Origin: a virus
Taxonomy: Duplodnaviria; Heunggongvirae; Uroviricota; Caudoviricetes
Reading direction: 5' to 3' (one strand)
IMG/VR virus record: IMGVR_UViG_2695420676_000008
DNA length: 10,916 nucleotides
A program made the position numbers and the translations under genes. The stretch's first letter is position 1. Each line of letters begins with the position of its first letter. Below the pieces are notes generated by a model. The model did not search any database. It was not told where the DNA came from and saw nothing but the letters and a program-made list of their open reading frames with translations. This document shows positions 222 to 9,877 of this stretch, piece by piece.

Positions 222-518
222 TCAGAATTCCATCTGGATTTGTTCAGAACGCTCGGTTGCCGCCGGGCGTTTTTTCTTTGTGATTTCATCAAGCGCATAC
301 TTAAAAGCCCTACTAATCGGACTGATGTCTGATGCCATTCCGAAAGCACACAAGACCGAAGCAATAAACCTCCAGTCTGTTCTGCTTATCTTCGATTCAT
401 GACAGCCAATCATCTTTGCCAGACCGCGCTGGGTAAGCGTTGACAGGTTGATGAGTAAATCTGTTTCTGCGCGATCAACGTCGCGCTGTGATAGTTTGCT
501 GTAACTTGTTTGTGTCAT
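222..518 (-). CDS. cII: cII-like transcriptional activator (98 aa)
   Basis: ORF track 222..518 minus. C-terminus KKKRPAATERSEQIQMEF matches lambda CII as recalled; the N-terminal part with an HTH-like segment (QRGLAKMIGCHESKISR) differs from lambda. Lies between cro and O on the same strand. Confidence 0.8.
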   Translation of the reverse strand: MTQTSYSKLSQRDVDRAETDLLINLSTLTQRGLAKMIGCHESKISRTDWRFIASVLCAFGMASDISPISRAFKYALDEITKKKRPAATERSEQIQMEF

Positions 519-551
519 TTCTTACTATTCCCATAGGTAAATAATCACTAA

Positions 552-571
552 CACTCATCTTTCGATGAGTG
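552..571 (-). terminator. Stem-loop in the cro-cII intergenic region, candidate tR1-like terminator
   Basis: On the transcribed (minus) strand: CACTCATC GAAA GATGAGTG, an 8-bp perfect stem with a GNRA-type loop, followed by a moderately U-rich stretch (TTAGTGATTATTT). No clean U-tract, so intrinsic termination is uncertain. Confidence 0.3.
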
Positions 572-582
572 CTTAATTAGTT

Positions 583-617
583 ACCGCGTTGTCGGCGGTG
601 CAGATTGATAAAGAGCG
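583..617 (-). promoter_or_regulatory. nutR-like site: boxA (609..617) plus boxB-like hairpin (583..599)
   Basis: Minus strand reads CGCTCTTTA (boxA consensus), then 9 nt, then ACCGC CGACAAC GCGGT (5-bp stem, 7-nt loop with a GACAA core resembling P22-type boxB). Located just downstream of cro, as nutR is in lambda. Confidence 0.45.
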
Positions 618-624
618 GTGTTAC

Positions 625-852
625 TTATGCAGCCAGAAGGTTCTTTTTGCTTATTTCAAGCATTTCGCTTGCTTGATATTTGCCACCAGAAATCTCTTCG
701 ATTTTTGATGCGTATTTAGTTTTCCCAAAAAACTCAGTCTTAGGGAGGAAGCCGTTTTTGAGCCACTTATAGACAGCCCTTTCGCTAACTCCACAAGCCT
801 TCGCAACTTCAGGGATGCCGACACCTTTAATCGGCTCATCAAGATTTTGCAT
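625..852 (-). CDS. cro: Cro-like HTH repressor (about 75 aa; alternative upstream start at 885 gives 86 aa)
   Basis: ORF track 625..885 minus; HTH segment IPEVAKACGVSERAVYKWLKNG. The ATG at 852 has an AAGGG Shine-Dalgarno and leaves a 78-bp divergent control region before cI. The ATG at 885 would sit inside the predicted pR -10, so the shorter form is preferred. Confidence 0.7.
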   Translation of the reverse strand: MQNLDEPIKGVGIPEVAKACGVSERAVYKWLKNGFLPKTEFFGKTKYASKIEEISGGKYQASEMLEISKKNLLAA

Positions 853-868
853 AGGAATACCCTTTTTC

Positions 869-937
869 GTACTTTCAGTACGCATTATGATTGAACTGAA
901 AGTTTTTGCAAGTGCTTTAGTATCGTACTCATGGTTC
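869..937. promoter_or_regulatory. oR region with divergent pR/pRM: three copies of a 13-bp dyad operator
   Basis: Sites GTACTTTCAGTAC (869..881), GAACTGAAAGTTT (893..905) and GTACTCATGGTTC (925..937) fit G[TA]ACT-N3-[AG]GT[AT]C. Candidate pR on the minus strand: -35 TTGCAA (906..911), 16-bp spacer, -10 CATAAT (884..889). cI starts at 931 with no Shine-Dalgarno, consistent with a leaderless pRM transcript as in lambda. Confidence 0.5.
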
Positions 938-1638
938 AGAATGAAAAAGTGCGCAAAGAATTCGCCCAGCGGCTAGCGCAAGCCTGTAAAGAAGCTGGTC
1001 TTGATGAACATGGTAGGGGAATGGCCATAGCCCGTGCCCTTTCTCTTTCGTCCAAAGGCGTTAGCAAATGGTTTAATGCTGAGTCTTTACCACGCCAGGA
1101 AAAAATGAATGCGCTTGCGAAATTTCTAAACGTTGATGTTGTTTGGCTTCAGCACGGCACTTCGTTAAATGGAGCGAATGATGAAGATACTTTTTCAATT
1201 GTTGGCAAATTAAAAAAAGGGTTAGTGCGCGTGGTTGGTGAGGCAATTCTTGGTGTTGATGGTGCCATCGAGATGACCGAAGAGCGCGATGGGTGGCTCA
1301 AGATTTATAGCGATGATCCAGATGCCTTTGGTCTTCGTGTAAAAGGAGACAGCATGTGGCCCAGAATTAAATCAGGAGAATATGTACTCATTGAGCCTAA
1401 CACCAAAGTATTCCCAGGTGATGAAGTGTTTGTCAGAACCATTGAAGGGCACAACATGATCAAGGTTCTTGGCTATGACAGAGACGGAGAATACCAATTT
1501 ACAAGCATCAATCAAGACCACAGGCCAATAACGTTGCCTTATCATCAAGTAGCAAAGGTGGAGTATGTGGCTGGTATTTTGAAGCAATCTCGCCACCTAG
1601 ATGACATCGAGGCAAGGGAATGGATTAAAAGTTCGTGA
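931..1638 (+). CDS. cI: cI-type prophage repressor, N-terminal HTH plus C-terminal S24 (LexA-like) autopeptidase domain, 235 aa
   Basis: ORF track 931..1638. Ser/Lys dyad motifs (GDSMWP; K in MIKVL) typical of LexA/cI self-cleaving repressors. Divergent from cro across the operator region. Sequence is not lambda cI, so this is a different immunity specificity. Confidence 0.9.
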   Translation: MVQNEKVRKEFAQRLAQACKEAGLDEHGRGMAIARALSLSSKGVSKWFNAESLPRQEKMNALAKFLNVDVVWLQHGTSLNGANDEDTFSIVGKLKKGLVRVVGEAILGVDGAIEMTEERDGWLKIYSDDPDAFGLRVKGDSMWPRIKSGEYVLIEPNTKVFPGDEVFVRTIEGHNMIKVLGYDRDGEYQFTSINQDHRPITLPYHQVAKVEYVAGILKQSRHLDDIEAREWIKSS

Positions 1639-1735: not shown

Positions 1736-2278
1736 GTGGCTAAAAAAGGCGACTTTAAGCCTACCCAGAAAGAGGTTGACCAAGCTATTACTCGCTTGAA
1801 AAAAGTAACTTTTAGCGGAGTTTCGTGGACCGGAAGTGAGGGACGAACCCCAATCTGGTTTAAATTGGATCTCAAAGCTTTTGATGAAATTGGCAACCCA
1901 ATCACAGGCATAAGATTTATGCTTCACTGGCGTTCTCCTATCGTTGAAGGGGTGGATATAGTGAAGCTTTCATTTGTGATGTTTCTTCATGACAGGCGCA
2001 TTTACGCGCTTGACCCGTACCCTGCGCATAACAAGTCACACCGTAATAAATCTATAGTGCACCATCCAGATTTTGTTGAGGTGGCTCGAGGTCCTCACTA
2101 TCACATGTACTTCGAATCAGCTGGGGAAGAAATTGCACTCAAGCTTGAAACGAACATCAAGCCAGATGATTTTTTTGGCTACTGGAATTATTTTTGCGAG
2201 GCGCTTAATATCATATATGAAGGCAGCCCACCTTTACCGAATCAAGATAAATCAGGTCAGCTATCATGGGAAATGTAA
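1736..2278 (+). CDS. Hypothetical protein, gene A of an uncharacterised two-gene cassette downstream of cI (180 aa with GTG start; start uncertain)
   Basis: Long open frame 1736..2278 with no recognisable lambda homolog. Same strand as cI, with no terminator between. No clear Shine-Dalgarno for the GTG at 1736; first in-frame ATG is at 1919. 3' end overlaps the next ORF. Confidence 0.5.
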   Translation: MAKKGDFKPTQKEVDQAITRLKKVTFSGVSWTGSEGRTPIWFKLDLKAFDEIGNPITGIRFMLHWRSPIVEGVDIVKLSFVMFLHDRRIYALDPYPAHNKSHRNKSIVHHPDFVEVARGPHYHMYFESAGEEIALKLETNIKPDDFFGYWNYFCEALNIIYEGSPPLPNQDKSGQLSWEM

Positions 2279-3042
2279 CGTGTTCAACAGTCATATCTAA
2301 GCTCGGGTTTGAATGCCACCCAATGAGCGACACGTTGCTGCGCGTTATTAGTCCCTTCACATACTACGATGATTGTGAGCAGATAAGCGTATTCGTTCAA
2401 GAGATGAGTGGTCAGTATAGGGTTACAGACTACTGCGATACATTGATGAATATTGAATCACGCGGCATCCACCTGACTAAAAAGAAAATTGATCTGATCA
2501 GGTCATCACTCGCTTCGCAAGGAATTTCATTAAATGACTCTGGAGAGATATCTGCGTGGGCAGATGAGTCGTCCGTTGGACAGGTAACTGCAAATGTTAT
2601 TCGTGGTGGGATTCTTGCATCCGCCCAAACTGCTGATTGGTATGCTGAGGTCAAAGACGATAAGTTCGAAAAATGTGTAATCAGTTACTTAAAATCAGCA
2701 GGGCTTGGGAAGCGACTAGCCTTAAAGGAAAAAGTGAAAGGTATTAGTGGGCATAACATTACTGTTCCGTTAACGCTAAGGAATGAGTCTCGACTAATAC
2801 CACCAAAACGCGGGTTTACGGTAAGCCTTGCCAGCAGTAAAGGATGGAATACTGCCCACTCAACAGTTGGGAAGATTGTTGACTTAAGTCAGGTCGTTCC
2901 TGACATAAACAATAGATTTGTAATAGTTGACAGCGATGGGTTAACACCTGAGCTACAGCAACTATCACTACTATTTAATGATACCGCACGAGTGTTGCCA
3001 TTCCATACCAGAGACTCTTGGATTGACTCTCTGGTAGCCTAG
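2266..3042 (+). CDS. Hypothetical protein, gene B of the same cassette (258 aa; alternative start at 2323)
   Basis: ORF track 2266..3042. Overlaps gene A by 13 nt, suggesting translational coupling. No transmembrane-like hydrophobic stretch noticed. Followed directly by a strong terminator. Confidence 0.6.
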   Translation: MGNVTCSTVISKLGFECHPMSDTLLRVISPFTYYDDCEQISVFVQEMSGQYRVTDYCDTLMNIESRGIHLTKKKIDLIRSSLASQGISLNDSGEISAWADESSVGQVTANVIRGGILASAQTADWYAEVKDDKFEKCVISYLKSAGLGKRLALKEKVKGISGHNITVPLTLRNESRLIPPKRGFTVSLASSKGWNTAHSTVGKIVDLSQVVPDINNRFVIVDSDGLTPELQQLSLLFNDTARVLPFHTRDSWIDSLVA

Positions 3043-3073
3043 AAAAACCCGGCCTCTGCGCCGGGTTTTCTTT
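3043..3073. terminator. Rho-independent terminator, potentially bidirectional, ending the cI/cassette transcription unit
   Basis: AAAAA CCCGGC ctctgc GCCGGG TTTTCTTT: 6-bp GC stem (3048..3053 / 3060..3065) flanked by an A-run upstream and a T-run downstream. Confidence 0.7.
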
Positions 3074-3231
3074 ACCTCACGTTCGCCTCCCCTATTTAAC
3101 ATCCGCATATGTGCTAACCCACGAACTAACACGCCAGCAATACAGTCCTTTCTCCCCTACAGACCAATCTTCAATCTTTGCAAAAATAAATTTCATTACA
3201 TATCAAAAACTTATCTAATAAAATTAAAGAG

Positions 3232-3280
3232 TTGCAAAATCTCGTACTTACAGTTCTTGATAATATCGAACTATTAGTTC
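3232..3280 (+). promoter_or_regulatory. oL/pL region: two operator dyads and a candidate extended -10 promoter
   Basis: GTACTTACAGTTC (3244..3256) and GAACTATTAGTTC (3268..3280, perfect palindrome) share the oR consensus and the same 24-bp centre spacing as the first two oR sites. TGATAATAT (3258..3266) is an extended -10-like element between them; TTGCAA at 3232..3237. Exact -35/-10 assignment is uncertain. Confidence 0.5.
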
Positions 3281-3390
3281 ATTATTATCGCCGTCAGCAG
3301 CAAGCCACGCAGTGAAATGGGTGTGACTTGCTCAGGCCGCCAGAAGCAACGCGGAAAATCAATTCCAGCTTATTACGATTGAGGTGAGCC

Positions 3391-3507
3391 ATGCTCAAGA
3401 AAGTCAAACGCCGACTTTACAAAGAAGGTAGATATTCATGCCAGTTGCAAAAATGCGACACAACAAAATGGAGTGTCGATGATTGGTGTAACTGGATAGA
3501 TAGATAG
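3391..3507 (+). CDS. Small hypothetical protein (38 aa), first ORF downstream of pL
   Basis: ATG at 3391 preceded by GAGGTG Shine-Dalgarno; translation MLKKVKRRLYKEGRYSCQLQKCDTTKWSVDDWCNWIDR. Too short for an N-like antiterminator and no resemblance to one. Could be non-coding. Confidence 0.3.
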   Translation: MLKKVKRRLYKEGRYSCQLQKCDTTKWSVDDWCNWIDR

Positions 3508-3586
3508 ATACGGAACTTGGTGGGATAAATAACAGGTAACTTAAGCGTATTTACTTTCGCAGCAAACAACTTATTTGAGGTGATAT

Positions 3587-3673
3587 ATGGAAGAAGAATT
3601 TGAAGAGTTCGAAGAGCATCCTCAGGATGTGATGGAACAATACCAGGACTATCCGTATGACTACGACTATTGA
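3587..3673 (+). CDS. Small acidic protein (28 aa), positionally equivalent to lambda orf28
   Basis: ATG at 3587 with GAGG Shine-Dalgarno; translation MEEEFEEFEEHPQDVMEQYQDYPYDYDY. Overlaps the ral start by 17 nt, the same overlap as I recall for lambda orf28/ral. Confidence 0.55.
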   Translation: MEEEFEEFEEHPQDVMEQYQDYPYDYDY

Positions 3674-3857
3674 TAAAAATCAATGGTGTGGACAATTCAA
3701 GCGATGCAATGGATGCAAGCTGCAATCGGAATGCATGGTTAAGCCTGAAGAAATGTTTCCTGTAATGGAAGATGGGAAATATGTCGATAAATGGGCAATA
3801 CGAACGACGGCAATGATTGCCAGAGAACTTGGTAAACAGAACAACAAAGCTGCCTGA
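3657..3857 (+). CDS. ral: Ral, restriction alleviation protein (66 aa)
   Basis: ORF track 3657..3857; sequence MTTTIDKNQWCGQFKRCNGCKLQSECMVKPEE... matches lambda Ral as recalled. Correct synteny between pL and ea10. Confidence 0.85.
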   Translation: MTTTIDKNQWCGQFKRCNGCKLQSECMVKPEEMFPVMEDGKYVDKWAIRTTAMIARELGKQNNKAA

Positions 3858-3993
3858 TAGTGACCTTTATTTTTGGCATAAATAACAGAATAAACACTGC
3901 ACTGTGTATTCATTCCAACGAGTGAATACACGGAGCAATGTCGCTCGTAACTAAACAGGAGCCGACTTGTTCTGATTATTGGAAATCTTCTTT

Positions 3994-4019
3994 GCCCTCC
4001 AGTGTGAGGGCGATTTTTT
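3994..4019 (+). terminator. Rho-independent terminator between ral and ea10
   Basis: GCCCTC cagtgt GAGGGC followed by GATTTTTTA: 6-bp stem, 6-nt loop, T6 tract. Confidence 0.6.
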
Positions 4020-4039: not shown

Positions 4040-4408
4040 ATGTCAAACATCAAAAAATACATCATTGATTACGACTGGAAAGCATCAATGGAAATTGAAA
4101 TCGACCATGACGTAATGACAGAGGAAAAACTTCACCAGATTAATAATTTCTGGTCAGACTCTGAATACCGACTCAATAAACACGGCTCTGTATTAAATGC
4201 TGTATTAATCATGCTGGCGCAACATGCTCTGCTTATAGCAATTTCAAGCGACTTAAATGCATATGGTGTTGTGTGTGAGTTCGACTGGAATGATGGAAAT
4301 GGTCAGGAAGGATGGCCTCCAATGGATGGTAGCGAAGGAATAAGAATTACCGATATCGATACATCAGGAATATTTGATCCAGATGATATGACTATCAAAG
4401 CCGCCTGA
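4040..4408 (+). CDS. ea10: Ea10 early protein (122 aa)
   Basis: ORF track 4040..4408; length and sequence (MSNIKKYIIDYDWKAS...) agree with lambda Ea10 as recalled. Synteny between ral and cIII. Confidence 0.8.
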   Translation: MSNIKKYIIDYDWKASMEIEIDHDVMTEEKLHQINNFWSDSEYRLNKHGSVLNAVLIMLAQHALLIAISSDLNAYGVVCEFDWNDGNGQEGWPPMDGSEGIRITDIDTSGIFDPDDMTIKAA

Positions 4409-4480
4409 GCGCGGCGTTACCGCATACCAATTACGCTTCACTCGAGGCGTTTTTCGTTATGTATAAATAAGGAGCACACC

Positions 4481-4621
4481 ATGCAATATGCCATTGCAGG
4501 GTGGCCTGTTGCTGGCTGCCCTTCCGAATCTTTACTTGAACGAATCACCCGTAAATTACGTGACGGATGGAAACGCCTTATCGACATACTTAATCAGCCA
4601 GGAGTCCCCAAAAATGGATAA
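4481..4621 (+). CDS. cIII: CIII, FtsH-inhibiting regulator stabilising CII (46 aa here)
   Basis: AAGGAG Shine-Dalgarno at 4468..4473, ATG at 4481; translation [46 protein letters not shown] then TAA. Matches lambda CIII but appears to stop about 8 codons earlier than the lambda protein as I recall it. Confidence 0.85.
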   Translation: MQYAIAGWPVAGCPSESLLERITRKLRDGWKRLIDILNQPGVPKNG

Positions 4622-4757
4622 AAAACTTATGGCTATCCAGACAAAATTCACTATTGCCACTTTTATTGGCGATGAAAAGATGTTTCGTGAGGCCGTCGAC
4701 GCTTATAAAAAATGGATATTAATACTGAAACTGAGATCAAGCAAAAGCATTCACTAA
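4614..4757 (+). CDS. kil: Kil, host cell-division (FtsZ) inhibitor (47 aa)
   Basis: Internal start within ORF 4488..4757; [47 protein letters not shown] matches lambda Kil with two N-terminal substitutions. Overlaps the cIII end and the gam start (46 nt) as in lambda. Confidence 0.85.
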
Positions 4758-7253: not shown

Positions 7254-7276
7254 GGAGCTACAGGCTCCTTTTTTAT
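7254..7276 (+). terminator. Rho-independent terminator
   Basis: GGAGC tacag GCTCC followed by TTTTTTATT: 5-bp stem, 5-nt loop, T6 tract. Confidence 0.6.
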
Positions 7277-7551: not shown

Positions 7552-7835
7552 TGGCTAACCTGCAACTTGCTGTTAAAAGTGAATACTTCGATGCCATGAT
7601 TCGCGGAGAGAAAACGGAAGAGTATCGCCTTGTTAATGACTACTGGAAAAAGCGCCTCGTTAACCGCGAGTATGGCAGTCTGATCATCACGAAGGGGTAT
7701 CCGAAGCGCGACGATTCCAGCCGCAGAATTGATGTTCCGTATGGCGGATATGAAATCAAGACAATCACACATCCGCACTTCGGCGATAAACCGGTAAAGG
7801 TATACGCGATAAAGGTGAATATCGGCAATGAATAA
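7548..7835 (+). CDS. Small conserved phage protein, ASCH/DUF3850-like (95 aa; assignment tentative)
   Basis: ORF track 7548..7835. ATGA overlap with the preceding TraR-like gene suggests coupling. The N-terminal pattern (LQLAVKSEYFDAMIRGEKTEEYR) resembles ASCH/DUF3850 proteins as I recall them. Confidence 0.55.
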   Translation: MMANLQLAVKSEYFDAMIRGEKTEEYRLVNDYWKKRLVNREYGSLIITKGYPKRDDSSRRIDVPYGGYEIKTITHPHFGDKPVKVYAIKVNIGNE

Positions 7836-7839
7836 CAAT

Positions 7840-7866
7840 CCTCGCATTGGCGGGGATTTCTTTTAT
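7840..7866 (+). terminator. Rho-independent terminator after the TraR/ASCH pair
   Basis: CCTCGC attg GCGGGG (6-bp stem including one G-U pair) followed by ATTTCTTTTAT. Confidence 0.55.
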
Positions 7867-7884
7867 CTGAAAAGGACAGAATAC

Positions 7885-8628
7885 ATGATTAACAATATTG
7901 CAAATCAGTCTTCGTTTCCGGCTGCAACAATTGACAGCCAGATGCTGTTGAAAATGGTTAATGAGGCGCGGAGACTGTGAGGCGAAAAAGAAGTACGCAA
8001 CAACGACTTCATTGCACGCATCAAAGATGAGCTTGAGGGGGAGGGTTACGAAATTTTCGTAACCCCCATGGATAAGAAAAAAGGCGGAGCGGATCAGGTG
8101 GTTATAGTGATGACCTACAAGCAAGCCCTGCGCGTCGCCGCACGTGAGTCGAAAGCCGTCCGTCGTTCGCTGGTCGACAAACTTGAATCAATGCAACAGC
8201 AGTTGCAACAAAAAACGACCACGAAGAAATCACCGGATGGCCTTGAAGAATTCCGTAAGGCACGCGCATTGAAAATGACCGTCGACACAATGAAAGACCT
8301 CTTCGACTTCCTCCCTCACCTCGCACCGGAAGCTAAACAGGTCGTTGCCGCCAGCCTGATTAATCCCGTCGTCGGCTTTAGTGCAATCCCTCTTCCGGTC
8401 ATTGATGAACATCACTACTCTGCGTCGGAGGTTGGCACCATGCTTGGCATTTCAGCCAACAAGGTAGGGCGCATTGCCAACACCTACATGCTCAAAACAG
8501 AAAAGTACGGGAAGTGGTTCATCGACAAATCGGCGCACAGTGACAAGCAGGTCGAGACATTTCGCTACAACGAGGCGGGAGTGCACAAGATCGAGGAACT
8601 CATCGAAGGAGAACGAAAGGCTGCATGA
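7885..8628 (+). pseudogene. Antirepressor/Rha-like regulatory protein gene interrupted by an in-frame TGA at 7978..7980 (the ORF track calls only the downstream part, 8068..8628)
   Basis: ATG at 7885 has a good Shine-Dalgarno (AAAGGACAG) and is in the same frame as ORF 8068..8628. The frame is open for 247 codons except for one TGA after codon 31 (..NEARRL*GEKEVRNNDFIARIKDEL..). The internal ATG at 8068 has no Shine-Dalgarno. The C-terminal half has an antirepressor-like character (tentative). Confidence 0.55.
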
Positions 8629-8805: not shown

Positions 8806-8950
8806 GTCCATTTCTCAGATATGGTCGGGTAGCGCGTATACCGAAAAACAACCGAAAGGTTAAGGATACGGGCCGACTTTGCACGGTGTTCAAGTACCTG
8901 ACCGCCCTGCTGAACACAGGGCTATCTGAACAAATGCAAAGGACATAAAA

Positions 8951-9574
8951 ATGACCAGTCAACTCATCCCCGTATTCAACGGCACTATCGCCAACGAAAC
9001 AGCCCTACTCTGCAATGCCCGCGATCTGCATGCTTTTTTAGGCGTGAAAAAGGTGTTTGCGGCATGGATTACAAATCGCATTTCAGAATACGAATTCATT
9101 GAAAATCAAGACTATATTTTGCTTTCCAATTTGGGAAAGCAAACATCTGGTAGAGGCGGTCACAACCGCAAGGATTACCACCTCACCCTCGACACAGCCA
9201 AAGAGCTGGCAATGGTCGAGCGCAACGAAAAAGGCCGCCAGATACGCCGATACTTCATCGAGTGCGAAAAGAAACTTCGCAGCATGCAACCAGCGCAGCA
9301 ATTCACAGACGAGGAAATCATCCTCCTCTGCTACATGCAGGTACAGATGGAGAAAGCACAGGACATCAGCAAACGCCTGTATCCGATATTGAAGGAACTG
9401 AACTCATCATACTCGAGCAAGCTGTATGACATCGCGTTTGAGACTTTCTACACGGTGACGAAAAACAGAGACGCACTGCTCAGGGAGGCGACACGACTTG
9501 ACCAGACAAGCGCCCTTTTCGAACGGGCAAGACCAATGCTGAAAAGCCTTCGGGCGAGACAATTCGAATTTTAA
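8951..9574 (+). CDS. AntA-domain antirepressor-like protein (207 aa)
   Basis: ORF track 8951..9574; AAAGGA Shine-Dalgarno 7 nt upstream. N-terminal region (DLHAFLGVKKVFAAWITNRISEYEFIENQDY...GGHNRKDYHLTLDTAKELAMV) fits the AntA/AntB antirepressor domain pattern as recalled. Confidence 0.75.
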   Translation: MTSQLIPVFNGTIANETALLCNARDLHAFLGVKKVFAAWITNRISEYEFIENQDYILLSNLGKQTSGRGGHNRKDYHLTLDTAKELAMVERNEKGRQIRRYFIECEKKLRSMQPAQQFTDEEIILLCYMQVQMEKAQDISKRLYPILKELNSSYSSKLYDIAFETFYTVTKNRDALLREATRLDQTSALFERARPMLKSLRARQFEF

Positions 9575-9658: not shown

Positions 9659-9877
9659 ATGTACTTGACACTTCAGGAGTGGAACGCACGCCAGCGACGC
9701 CCAAGAAGCCCTGAAACAGTTCGTCGATGGGTACGCGAGTGCAGGATATTCCCTCCTCCGGTTAAGGATGGAAGAGAGTATCTGTTCCACGAATCAGCGG
9801 TAAAGGTTGACTTAAATCGACCAGTAACAGGTAGCCTTTTGAAGAGGATCAGAAATGGGAAGAAGGCGAAGTCATGA
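9659..9877 (+). CDS. xis: Excisionase Xis (72 aa)
   Basis: ORF track 9659..9877; MYLTLQEWNARQRRPRSPETVRRWVRECRIFPPPVKDGREYLFHESAVKVDLNRPVTG... matches lambda Xis with a few substitutions. 23-nt overlap with int as in lambda. Confidence 0.95.
   Translation: MYLTLQEWNARQRRPRSPETVRRWVRECRIFPPPVKDGREYLFHESAVKVDLNRPVTGSLLKRIRNGKKAKS

Follow-up and report, generated by a model that had tools for sequence, protein, structure and literature searches.

A private 445-bp deletion of nutL and most of the N gene in the early-left region of a lambda-like Escherichia coli prophage

The left operon of the prophage studied here raises the question of why a lambda-like element should lack the N antiterminator gene downstream of pL: was the gene lost, or does the element work by a mechanism that does not need it? 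The stretch of DNA that was analysed (10,916 nucleotides, referred to as the window throughout) comprises the immunity and early-left region of a lambda-like E. coli prophage, with pL transcription running on the plus strand. Only about 300 nt separate pL from orf28. The original prediction, made from the letters of the window, was that the interval from pL to orf28/ral is devoid of an N gene, and that either a segment with N, nutL and sieB had been deleted or antitermination proceeds without N. Our analysis indicates that N and nutL are absent as the result of a recent, strain-private, illegitimate deletion of 445 bp, and that the consequence would be an N-negative, probably non-excising prophage. 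We give this reading a probability of about 0.88.

Layout of the immunity and early-left region

The features of the window are collected in Table 1. The terminator that follows the two open reading frames (ORFs) in the rexAB position occupies the position that the post-rexB terminator has in lambda. The pL region is bounded upstream by this terminator, whose letters are unchanged in related prophages, as seen by alignment and pairwise comparison. The oL dyads are of the same kind as the oR dyads, and their position and this similarity suggest that they are operators; the stretch that holds them is intact and identical to that of the sister prophage CD45 (NZ_CP182220.1). The pL promoter is also intact and aligns without differences with that of the N-bearing relatives. 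Its predicted transcription start, near 3292, is followed after about 8 nt by the deletion junction described below. Two SNPs relative to the sister prophage MB06102 (NZ_CM129889.1), at 884 (in the -10 element of pR) and 3250 (in oL), were considered as regulatory mutations and discarded: CD45 has the window alleles at both positions, so that they are polymorphisms of MB06102.

Table 1. Coordinates of features in the window
Feature	Position	Strand	Basis and remarks
cII	222-518	-	
tR1-position hairpin	550-573	-	Terminator scan; between nutR and cII, role assigned from position
nutR, P22 type	581-625	-	Alignment with annotated P22 and phage L nutR; boxA CGCTCTTTA, 9-nt spacer, boxB ACCGCCGACAACGCGGT
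cro	852-625	-	
oR/pR/pRM	between cro and cI		oR dyads at 868-882 and around 893-905
cI	931-1638		
Two ORFs in rexAB position	1736-2278 and 2266-3042	+	
Terminator	3046-3070	+	Read from sequence; hairpin and T-run aaaaacccggcctctgcgccgggttttctt; ends the cI / 180-aa ORF / DUF1828 operon
oL operator-like dyads	3243-3256; 3268-3280		Read from sequence; CGTACTTACAGTTC; GAACTATTAGTTC
pL promoter	3257-3285	+	Consensus scan; -35 TTGATA, 17-nt spacer, -10 CATTAT
Orphan 3' end of N	3302-3382	+	tblastn; codons 88-113 (KPRSEMGVTCSGRQKQRGKSIPAYYD) and TGA stop
DUF5484 small ORF, 38 aa	3391-3507	+	Pfam PF17583, E=6.8e-10
orf28, lambda lambdap47-like, 28 aa	3587-3673	+	SfI annotation and ORF list; overlaps ral start
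ral	3657-3857	+	RefSeq Ral annotation in relatives
First strong intrinsic terminator of pL operon	3992-4019	+	Scan; 8-bp stem, 5 G-C pairs, T6 tail
ea10-like, cIII, kil, gam, bet, exo	downstream of terminator 3992-4019, in that order		
Further consensus terminator-like sites downstream of pL	4433-4450, 7254-7268	+	Terminator scan
xis	9659-9877		
int	9855 to window end		
Private 12-bp in-frame deletion in int	9974/9975	+	Removes Arg-Arg-Ile-Ala (RRIA, residues 41-44)

Several other observations concern the regions around the pL segment. The 180-aa protein of the first rex-position ORF has a weak match to DUF6978, below the Pfam cut-off, and a match to the PADLOC model PDC-M24A (E=1.5e-3). The 258-aa protein of the second, which matches DUF1828 and PDC-M24B (E=6e-7), is widespread, being indexed in 1,955 blocks of the protein collection. 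The pair is a candidate prophage-encoded defence pair in the rexAB slot and is likely to be co-transcribed with cI. In the sister prophage of E. coli ECO2947, a gene with transposase domains (rve, HTH_Tnp_1) separates the 3' end of cI from the 180-aa ORF (117-1330 of our locus L011); it may reflect a further way, independent of the deletion described here, in which members of this prophage family decay. A strong plus-strand terminator at 246-279 (12-bp stem, T-run) is antisense to the 3' end of cII, and resembles the terminator of lambda oop RNA in both position and sequence.

A scan of the whole window against Rfam (E<=1) returned only two RNA families, neither of them in 3043-3660. The lambda cIII thermoregulator (RF01804) matches at 4468-4526 on the plus strand with 88.5 bits, over the start of cIII, so that the translational control of cIII is conserved. 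The second is sRNA-Xcc1 (RF02221), which matches at 8823-8911 (+) over the full length of the model with 69.3 bits (gathering threshold 53, E=3e-11), between the ORF at 8068-8628 and an Ant-like ORF at 8951-9574. In addition, the counterpart in MB06102 (L006 7375-8118) of the gene at about 7828-8628 (+) is a RefSeq pseudogene with an internal stop. The window is the same as MB06102 here, and this lesion is therefore lineage-wide and older than the deletion of N.

The 445-bp deletion and its content

When the window is aligned with MB06102 and CD45, it matches them up to ...GCCGTCAGCAG (3300), then has a clean gap, and matches them again from CAAGCCACGCAG (3301). The junction at 3300/3301 (+) corresponds to 445 bp of the relatives (4259-4703 of locus L004) that are missing from the window; its microhomology is 1 nt (G3300), and there is no flanking repeat. 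The missing segment consists of 185 nt of pL leader, the ribosome-binding site of N and codons 1-86 of its 113 codons. The nutL site sits in this leader and comprises boxA GCTCTTTAA, a 9-nt spacer and boxB GCGCTGACAAAGCGC. When 3043-3660 was compared with phages by megablast, the query split at about 3298-3300: the left part (window 3047-3300) matches the pL region of the Lambda_2E9 group, and the right part (from 3298) matches Sf6 and SfI, beginning inside the annotated N, 85 nt before its stop. Among complete E. coli genomes, 13 hold the full 618-bp query at 99.2-99.4% identity, in two pieces that span 1,059 bp. The 445 bp that these near-identical prophages have in addition at 3300/3301, including nutL and the larger part of N, bear out the suggestion that an N/nutL segment had been deleted.

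What remains of N is a 3' end that has no start codon, no arginine-rich motif and no ribosome-binding site. In tblastn searches with three N proteins (those of the MB06102 relative, Sf6 and Lambda_2E9), the sole match in the 10.9-kb window was to residues 88-113, at 3302-3379, where identity to WP_001504518.1 is 100%. The list of plus-strand ORFs of at least 30 aa in 3043-3657 contains nothing besides 3111-3218 (35 aa, upstream of pL) and the 38-aa ORF. Thus, the ORF list and tblastn agree with the original prediction that no N gene lies between pL and orf28/ral; the search for an N homologue in the interval, which might have overturned it, found just this C-terminal remnant, with no other N-like match across the window. 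The first gene of the pL operon is accordingly not an N gene with an arginine-rich motif.

The relatives encode a full N of 113 aa (WP_001504518.1) that matches Pfam PF25694 (N_peptide, E=5.2e-26) and contains the arginine-rich motif GNAKTRRHERRRKLAIER. We take this motif, and the nutL boxB of the relatives, to be those of P22 gp24 and P22 nutL, respectively. An N_peptide gene (111-139 aa) is also located downstream of the DUF1828 gene in 10 of the 10 distinct places sampled (25 contigs read) for this check. The N proteins themselves, compared from L004 4444-4785, L001 2253-2585 and L003 3939-4247, are mosaic. The last ~27 residues (KPR(S/C)EMGVTCSGRQKQRGKSIPAYYD) are common to the N of this lineage, with its P22-type motif, and the N of Sf6 and SfI, with a lambda-type motif, and the N of Lambda_2E9 has the same N-terminal 70 residues and a different C-terminus.

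The two nut sites of the prophage have had different fates. A nutR-like element had been noticed near cro, and it is genuine: it aligns with the annotated nutR sites of P22 and phage L, its boxB is identical to the boxB of both, it folds at -6.7 kcal/mol, and its boxA and boxB lie between cro and tR1/cII. This nutR is intact, yet the window has lost the gene for the cognate N. A search of the window for the nutL boxB, allowing 2 mismatches, gave no match; the pL leader of the window has no nutL, and the site is present in 12 related loci. A hairpin at 3337-3354 (+) had been put forward as a possible remnant of nutL. Its stem is 4 bp long and its loop 10 nt, and the fold is not more stable than expected by chance (-5 kcal/mol, z = -0.57). 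Its letters are unchanged in relatives, whose real nutL is ~380 nt upstream. Since the hairpin lies inside the retained reading frame of N, it is not a nutL remnant.

The sister prophages in CD45, MB06102 and 11 other complete genomes are 99.8-100% identical to the window on both sides of the junction. The regions shared with CD45 and MB06102 at this level include cII, cro, cI, the 180-aa ORF, DUF1828, pL and nutR, and, to the right of the junction, DUF5484, orf28, ral, ea10, cIII, kil, gam, bet and exo; xis and int are likewise 99.8-100% identical in MB06102, CD45 having been compared over the first 7.6 kb only. Over that length, CD45 differs from the window by the 445-bp deletion, an extra GATA unit at 3495-3498 and 1 SNP. 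Over all 10.9 kb, MB06102 differs by the same two indels, the 12-bp int deletion and 2 SNPs. Unlike the window, the sister prophages have the 445 bp, and with them nutL and a complete N of 113 aa, as well as the 12 bp of int and three GATA units. The MB06102 prophage is integrated next to mdtA and is a full-length lambda-like element with O, P, nin genes, Q and lysis, head and tail genes, so that the ancestor of the window prophage was plausibly functional.

The deletion is recent and private. It is recent because there are almost no substitutions relative to CD45, and it is absent from every related copy sampled. None of 5,426 complete E. coli genomes searched by megablast contains the junction, every full match of the probe being split over ~524 bp. 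The exact junction is also absent from GTDB (one genome per species), IMG/VR and JGI metagenome contigs, and from 19 fetched loci.

The gene that now follows the N remnant is the small ORF of 38 aa, which encodes a DUF5484 protein homologous to Sf6 gene 36 and SfI_0044. An exact look-up of the protein found no record. It is 38 aa long in the window and 45 aa in most relatives, owing to a frameshift caused by the fourth GATA unit at 3495-3498; the repeat (3487-3502) has four units in the window and three in most relatives. The four-unit allele is also found in strain PSS-11, which has an intact N, and is therefore a slippage polymorphism. The encoded protein is basic at its N-terminus (MLKKVKRRLYK), the ORF has a good Shine-Dalgarno sequence, and it had been regarded as a candidate antiterminator. 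However, in Sf6, SfI and PSS-11 the N gene upstream of it is intact, and the role of a substitute for N is rejected on these grounds. The supposed loss of sieB is not upheld either. The Lambda_2E9 group has sieB between N and ral, unlike the sister prophages of this lineage; these are intact and have no sieB there, so it was not lost along with N.

Alternative explanations for the missing segment

Three other explanations of the gap can be considered, and each can be weighed against the features of the junction and its relatives. The first is that the gap is an artefact of assembly collapse, or a deletion engineered in a laboratory strain. The junction is unique to the window in every collection searched, and the window has a second private in-frame deletion, in int, both of which would fit such an origin. 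However, an assembly could not have collapsed on flanking repeats, as there are none and the microhomology is 1 nt, and deletions of 445 bp and 12 bp are atypical as sequencing errors. The junction has no scar, cassette, restriction site or recombination site. We consider this explanation unlikely.

A still smaller probability attaches to the view that the junction is an ordinary boundary between mosaic modules, produced by recombination of two lambdoid phages. The switch in phage homology at the junction, with the Lambda_2E9 group on the left and Sf6/SfI on the right, is what such a boundary would look like, and mosaicism is also seen in the N proteins, which have lambda-type or P22-type arginine-rich motifs ahead of a common C-terminus. 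Against this, the sequences to the left and right of the junction are 99.8-100% identical to those of a single lineage (CD45, MB06102 and the 11 others), with the 445 bp as the sole difference at the joint. In addition, a reading frame is broken there, and the homology at the joint is no more than 1 nt. This makes a module boundary very unlikely.

Least probable of all, and scarcely credible, is native antitermination without N, through a cis-acting put-type RNA as in HK022/HK639 or through the 38-aa protein, which the original prediction had kept as its second possibility: no N gene is present and the 38-aa ORF has the basic N-terminus and ribosome-binding site noted above, but the last 26 codons of N persist, still in frame with the stop codon, as is typical of a truncated gene, near-identical prophages hold N and nutL at the exact spot, all ten sampled places with this immunity module encode an N_peptide protein, nutR is a P22-type target of N, the 38-aa ORF is a DUF5484 gene that coexists with intact N, and the new pL leader (3290-3400) contains no Rfam match (although put is perhaps not an Rfam family) and folds no better than shuffled sequences (z = 0.08).

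Predicted consequences and comparison with known systems

The deletion of N and nutL, which remains the preferred reading, has consequences for transcription that are predicted here from the established biology of lambda and P22. The deletion begins ~8 nt after the predicted pL start and fuses pL to the last 26 codons of N, followed by the DUF5484 ORF, orf28 and ral. When pL is derepressed, transcription would start near 3292 and proceed through the untranslatable N remnant and these three genes. With neither nutL nor N available, the polymerase from pL could not become termination-resistant; it would stay unmodified and stop at the terminator at 3992-4019, which matches a site annotated as tL2A-like in Sf6. 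The terminators were called by consensus, and their strength is thus a predicted one. The genes beyond, namely ea10, cIII, kil, gam, bet, exo, xis and int, would not be induced from pL. On the other arm, nutR is intact, but with no N the polymerase from pR would terminate at tR1 and in the nin region and would not reach Q and the late genes, a block that holds unless the nin region, which is outside the window, is free of terminators; an N-independent (nin-type) configuration of the parts of the prophage outside the window is possible. The expected product is an N-negative, non-killing and probably non-excising ('grounded') prophage that would still express cI immunity and the two genes in the rex position. 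The prophage is very probably crippled and is probably non-inducible.

A P22-type N may be encoded by a further prophage of the host. If a co-resident P22-type phage provided N in trans, rescue would be limited to the pR arm, since nutL is deleted in cis.

The second private lesion, in int, removes four residues that presumably fall in the N-terminal arm-binding domain, as in lambda Int. The 12 bp are kept in all ~1,950 E. coli genomes that have the same int segment. With the nutL/N deletion and the deletion in Int, the window carries loss-of-function lesions relative to intact relatives, as is characteristic of a defective prophage. Two private deletions, affecting induction and excision functions, against 0-2 substitutions fit the early stage of prophage decay or grounding. 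That the two deletions were jointly selected to give a permanently locked-in element, which keeps cI immunity and the candidate defence pair, seems quite improbable to us. On that reading, P22-type N from a co-resident phage, acting at the intact nutR, could still allow in situ replication from pR; the element would then be helper-dependent and non-excising, and might bring about, for example, lateral-transduction-like amplification of the neighbouring mdt region. Our literature search on N lesions in O157 defective prophages found no relevant text.

For annotation, the prophage should be called defective (N-negative, nutL-negative, altered Int), and it provides no evidence for a new antitermination mechanism. 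This is ordinary decay of a kind already known, with nothing new in kind relative to current views of prophage grounding and domestication and of defective prophages (PMC6379469). The window does offer a clean, datable case of the first steps of prophage inactivation, with three indels against 0-2 substitutions in ~11 kb, and the lesion hits the very regulator whose loss makes induction non-lethal to the host.

Three known systems can be compared with the window. In lambda, loss of N blocks delayed-early expression from both pL and pR, as established by the genetics of N- and nutL- mutants, and induction does not kill N-defective lysogens, since kil and the lysis genes remain silent in them. 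The window prophage would behave like such a classical N-, nutL- defective prophage, with the difference that one natural deletion removes both N and its cis site nutL here. The put phages HK022 and HK639 likewise have no N gene downstream of pL. Unlike them, the window has no structured two-stem leader RNA of the put type, contains a 3' remnant of N and a P22-type nutR, and has sister prophages that use N. The closest counterpart is the gene 24 (N)/nutL/nutR module of P22, also found in phage L: the boxA and boxB of its nutR match those of the window, boxB being identical. In contrast to P22, the window encodes neither the N protein nor the left site, the rest of the phage is lambda-like and not P22-like, and the C-terminal half of the N of this lineage is shared with the N of Sf6 and SfI. 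The window copy is a deletion mutant of a P22-type N/nut module, which lacks the N gene and nutL and keeps nutR.
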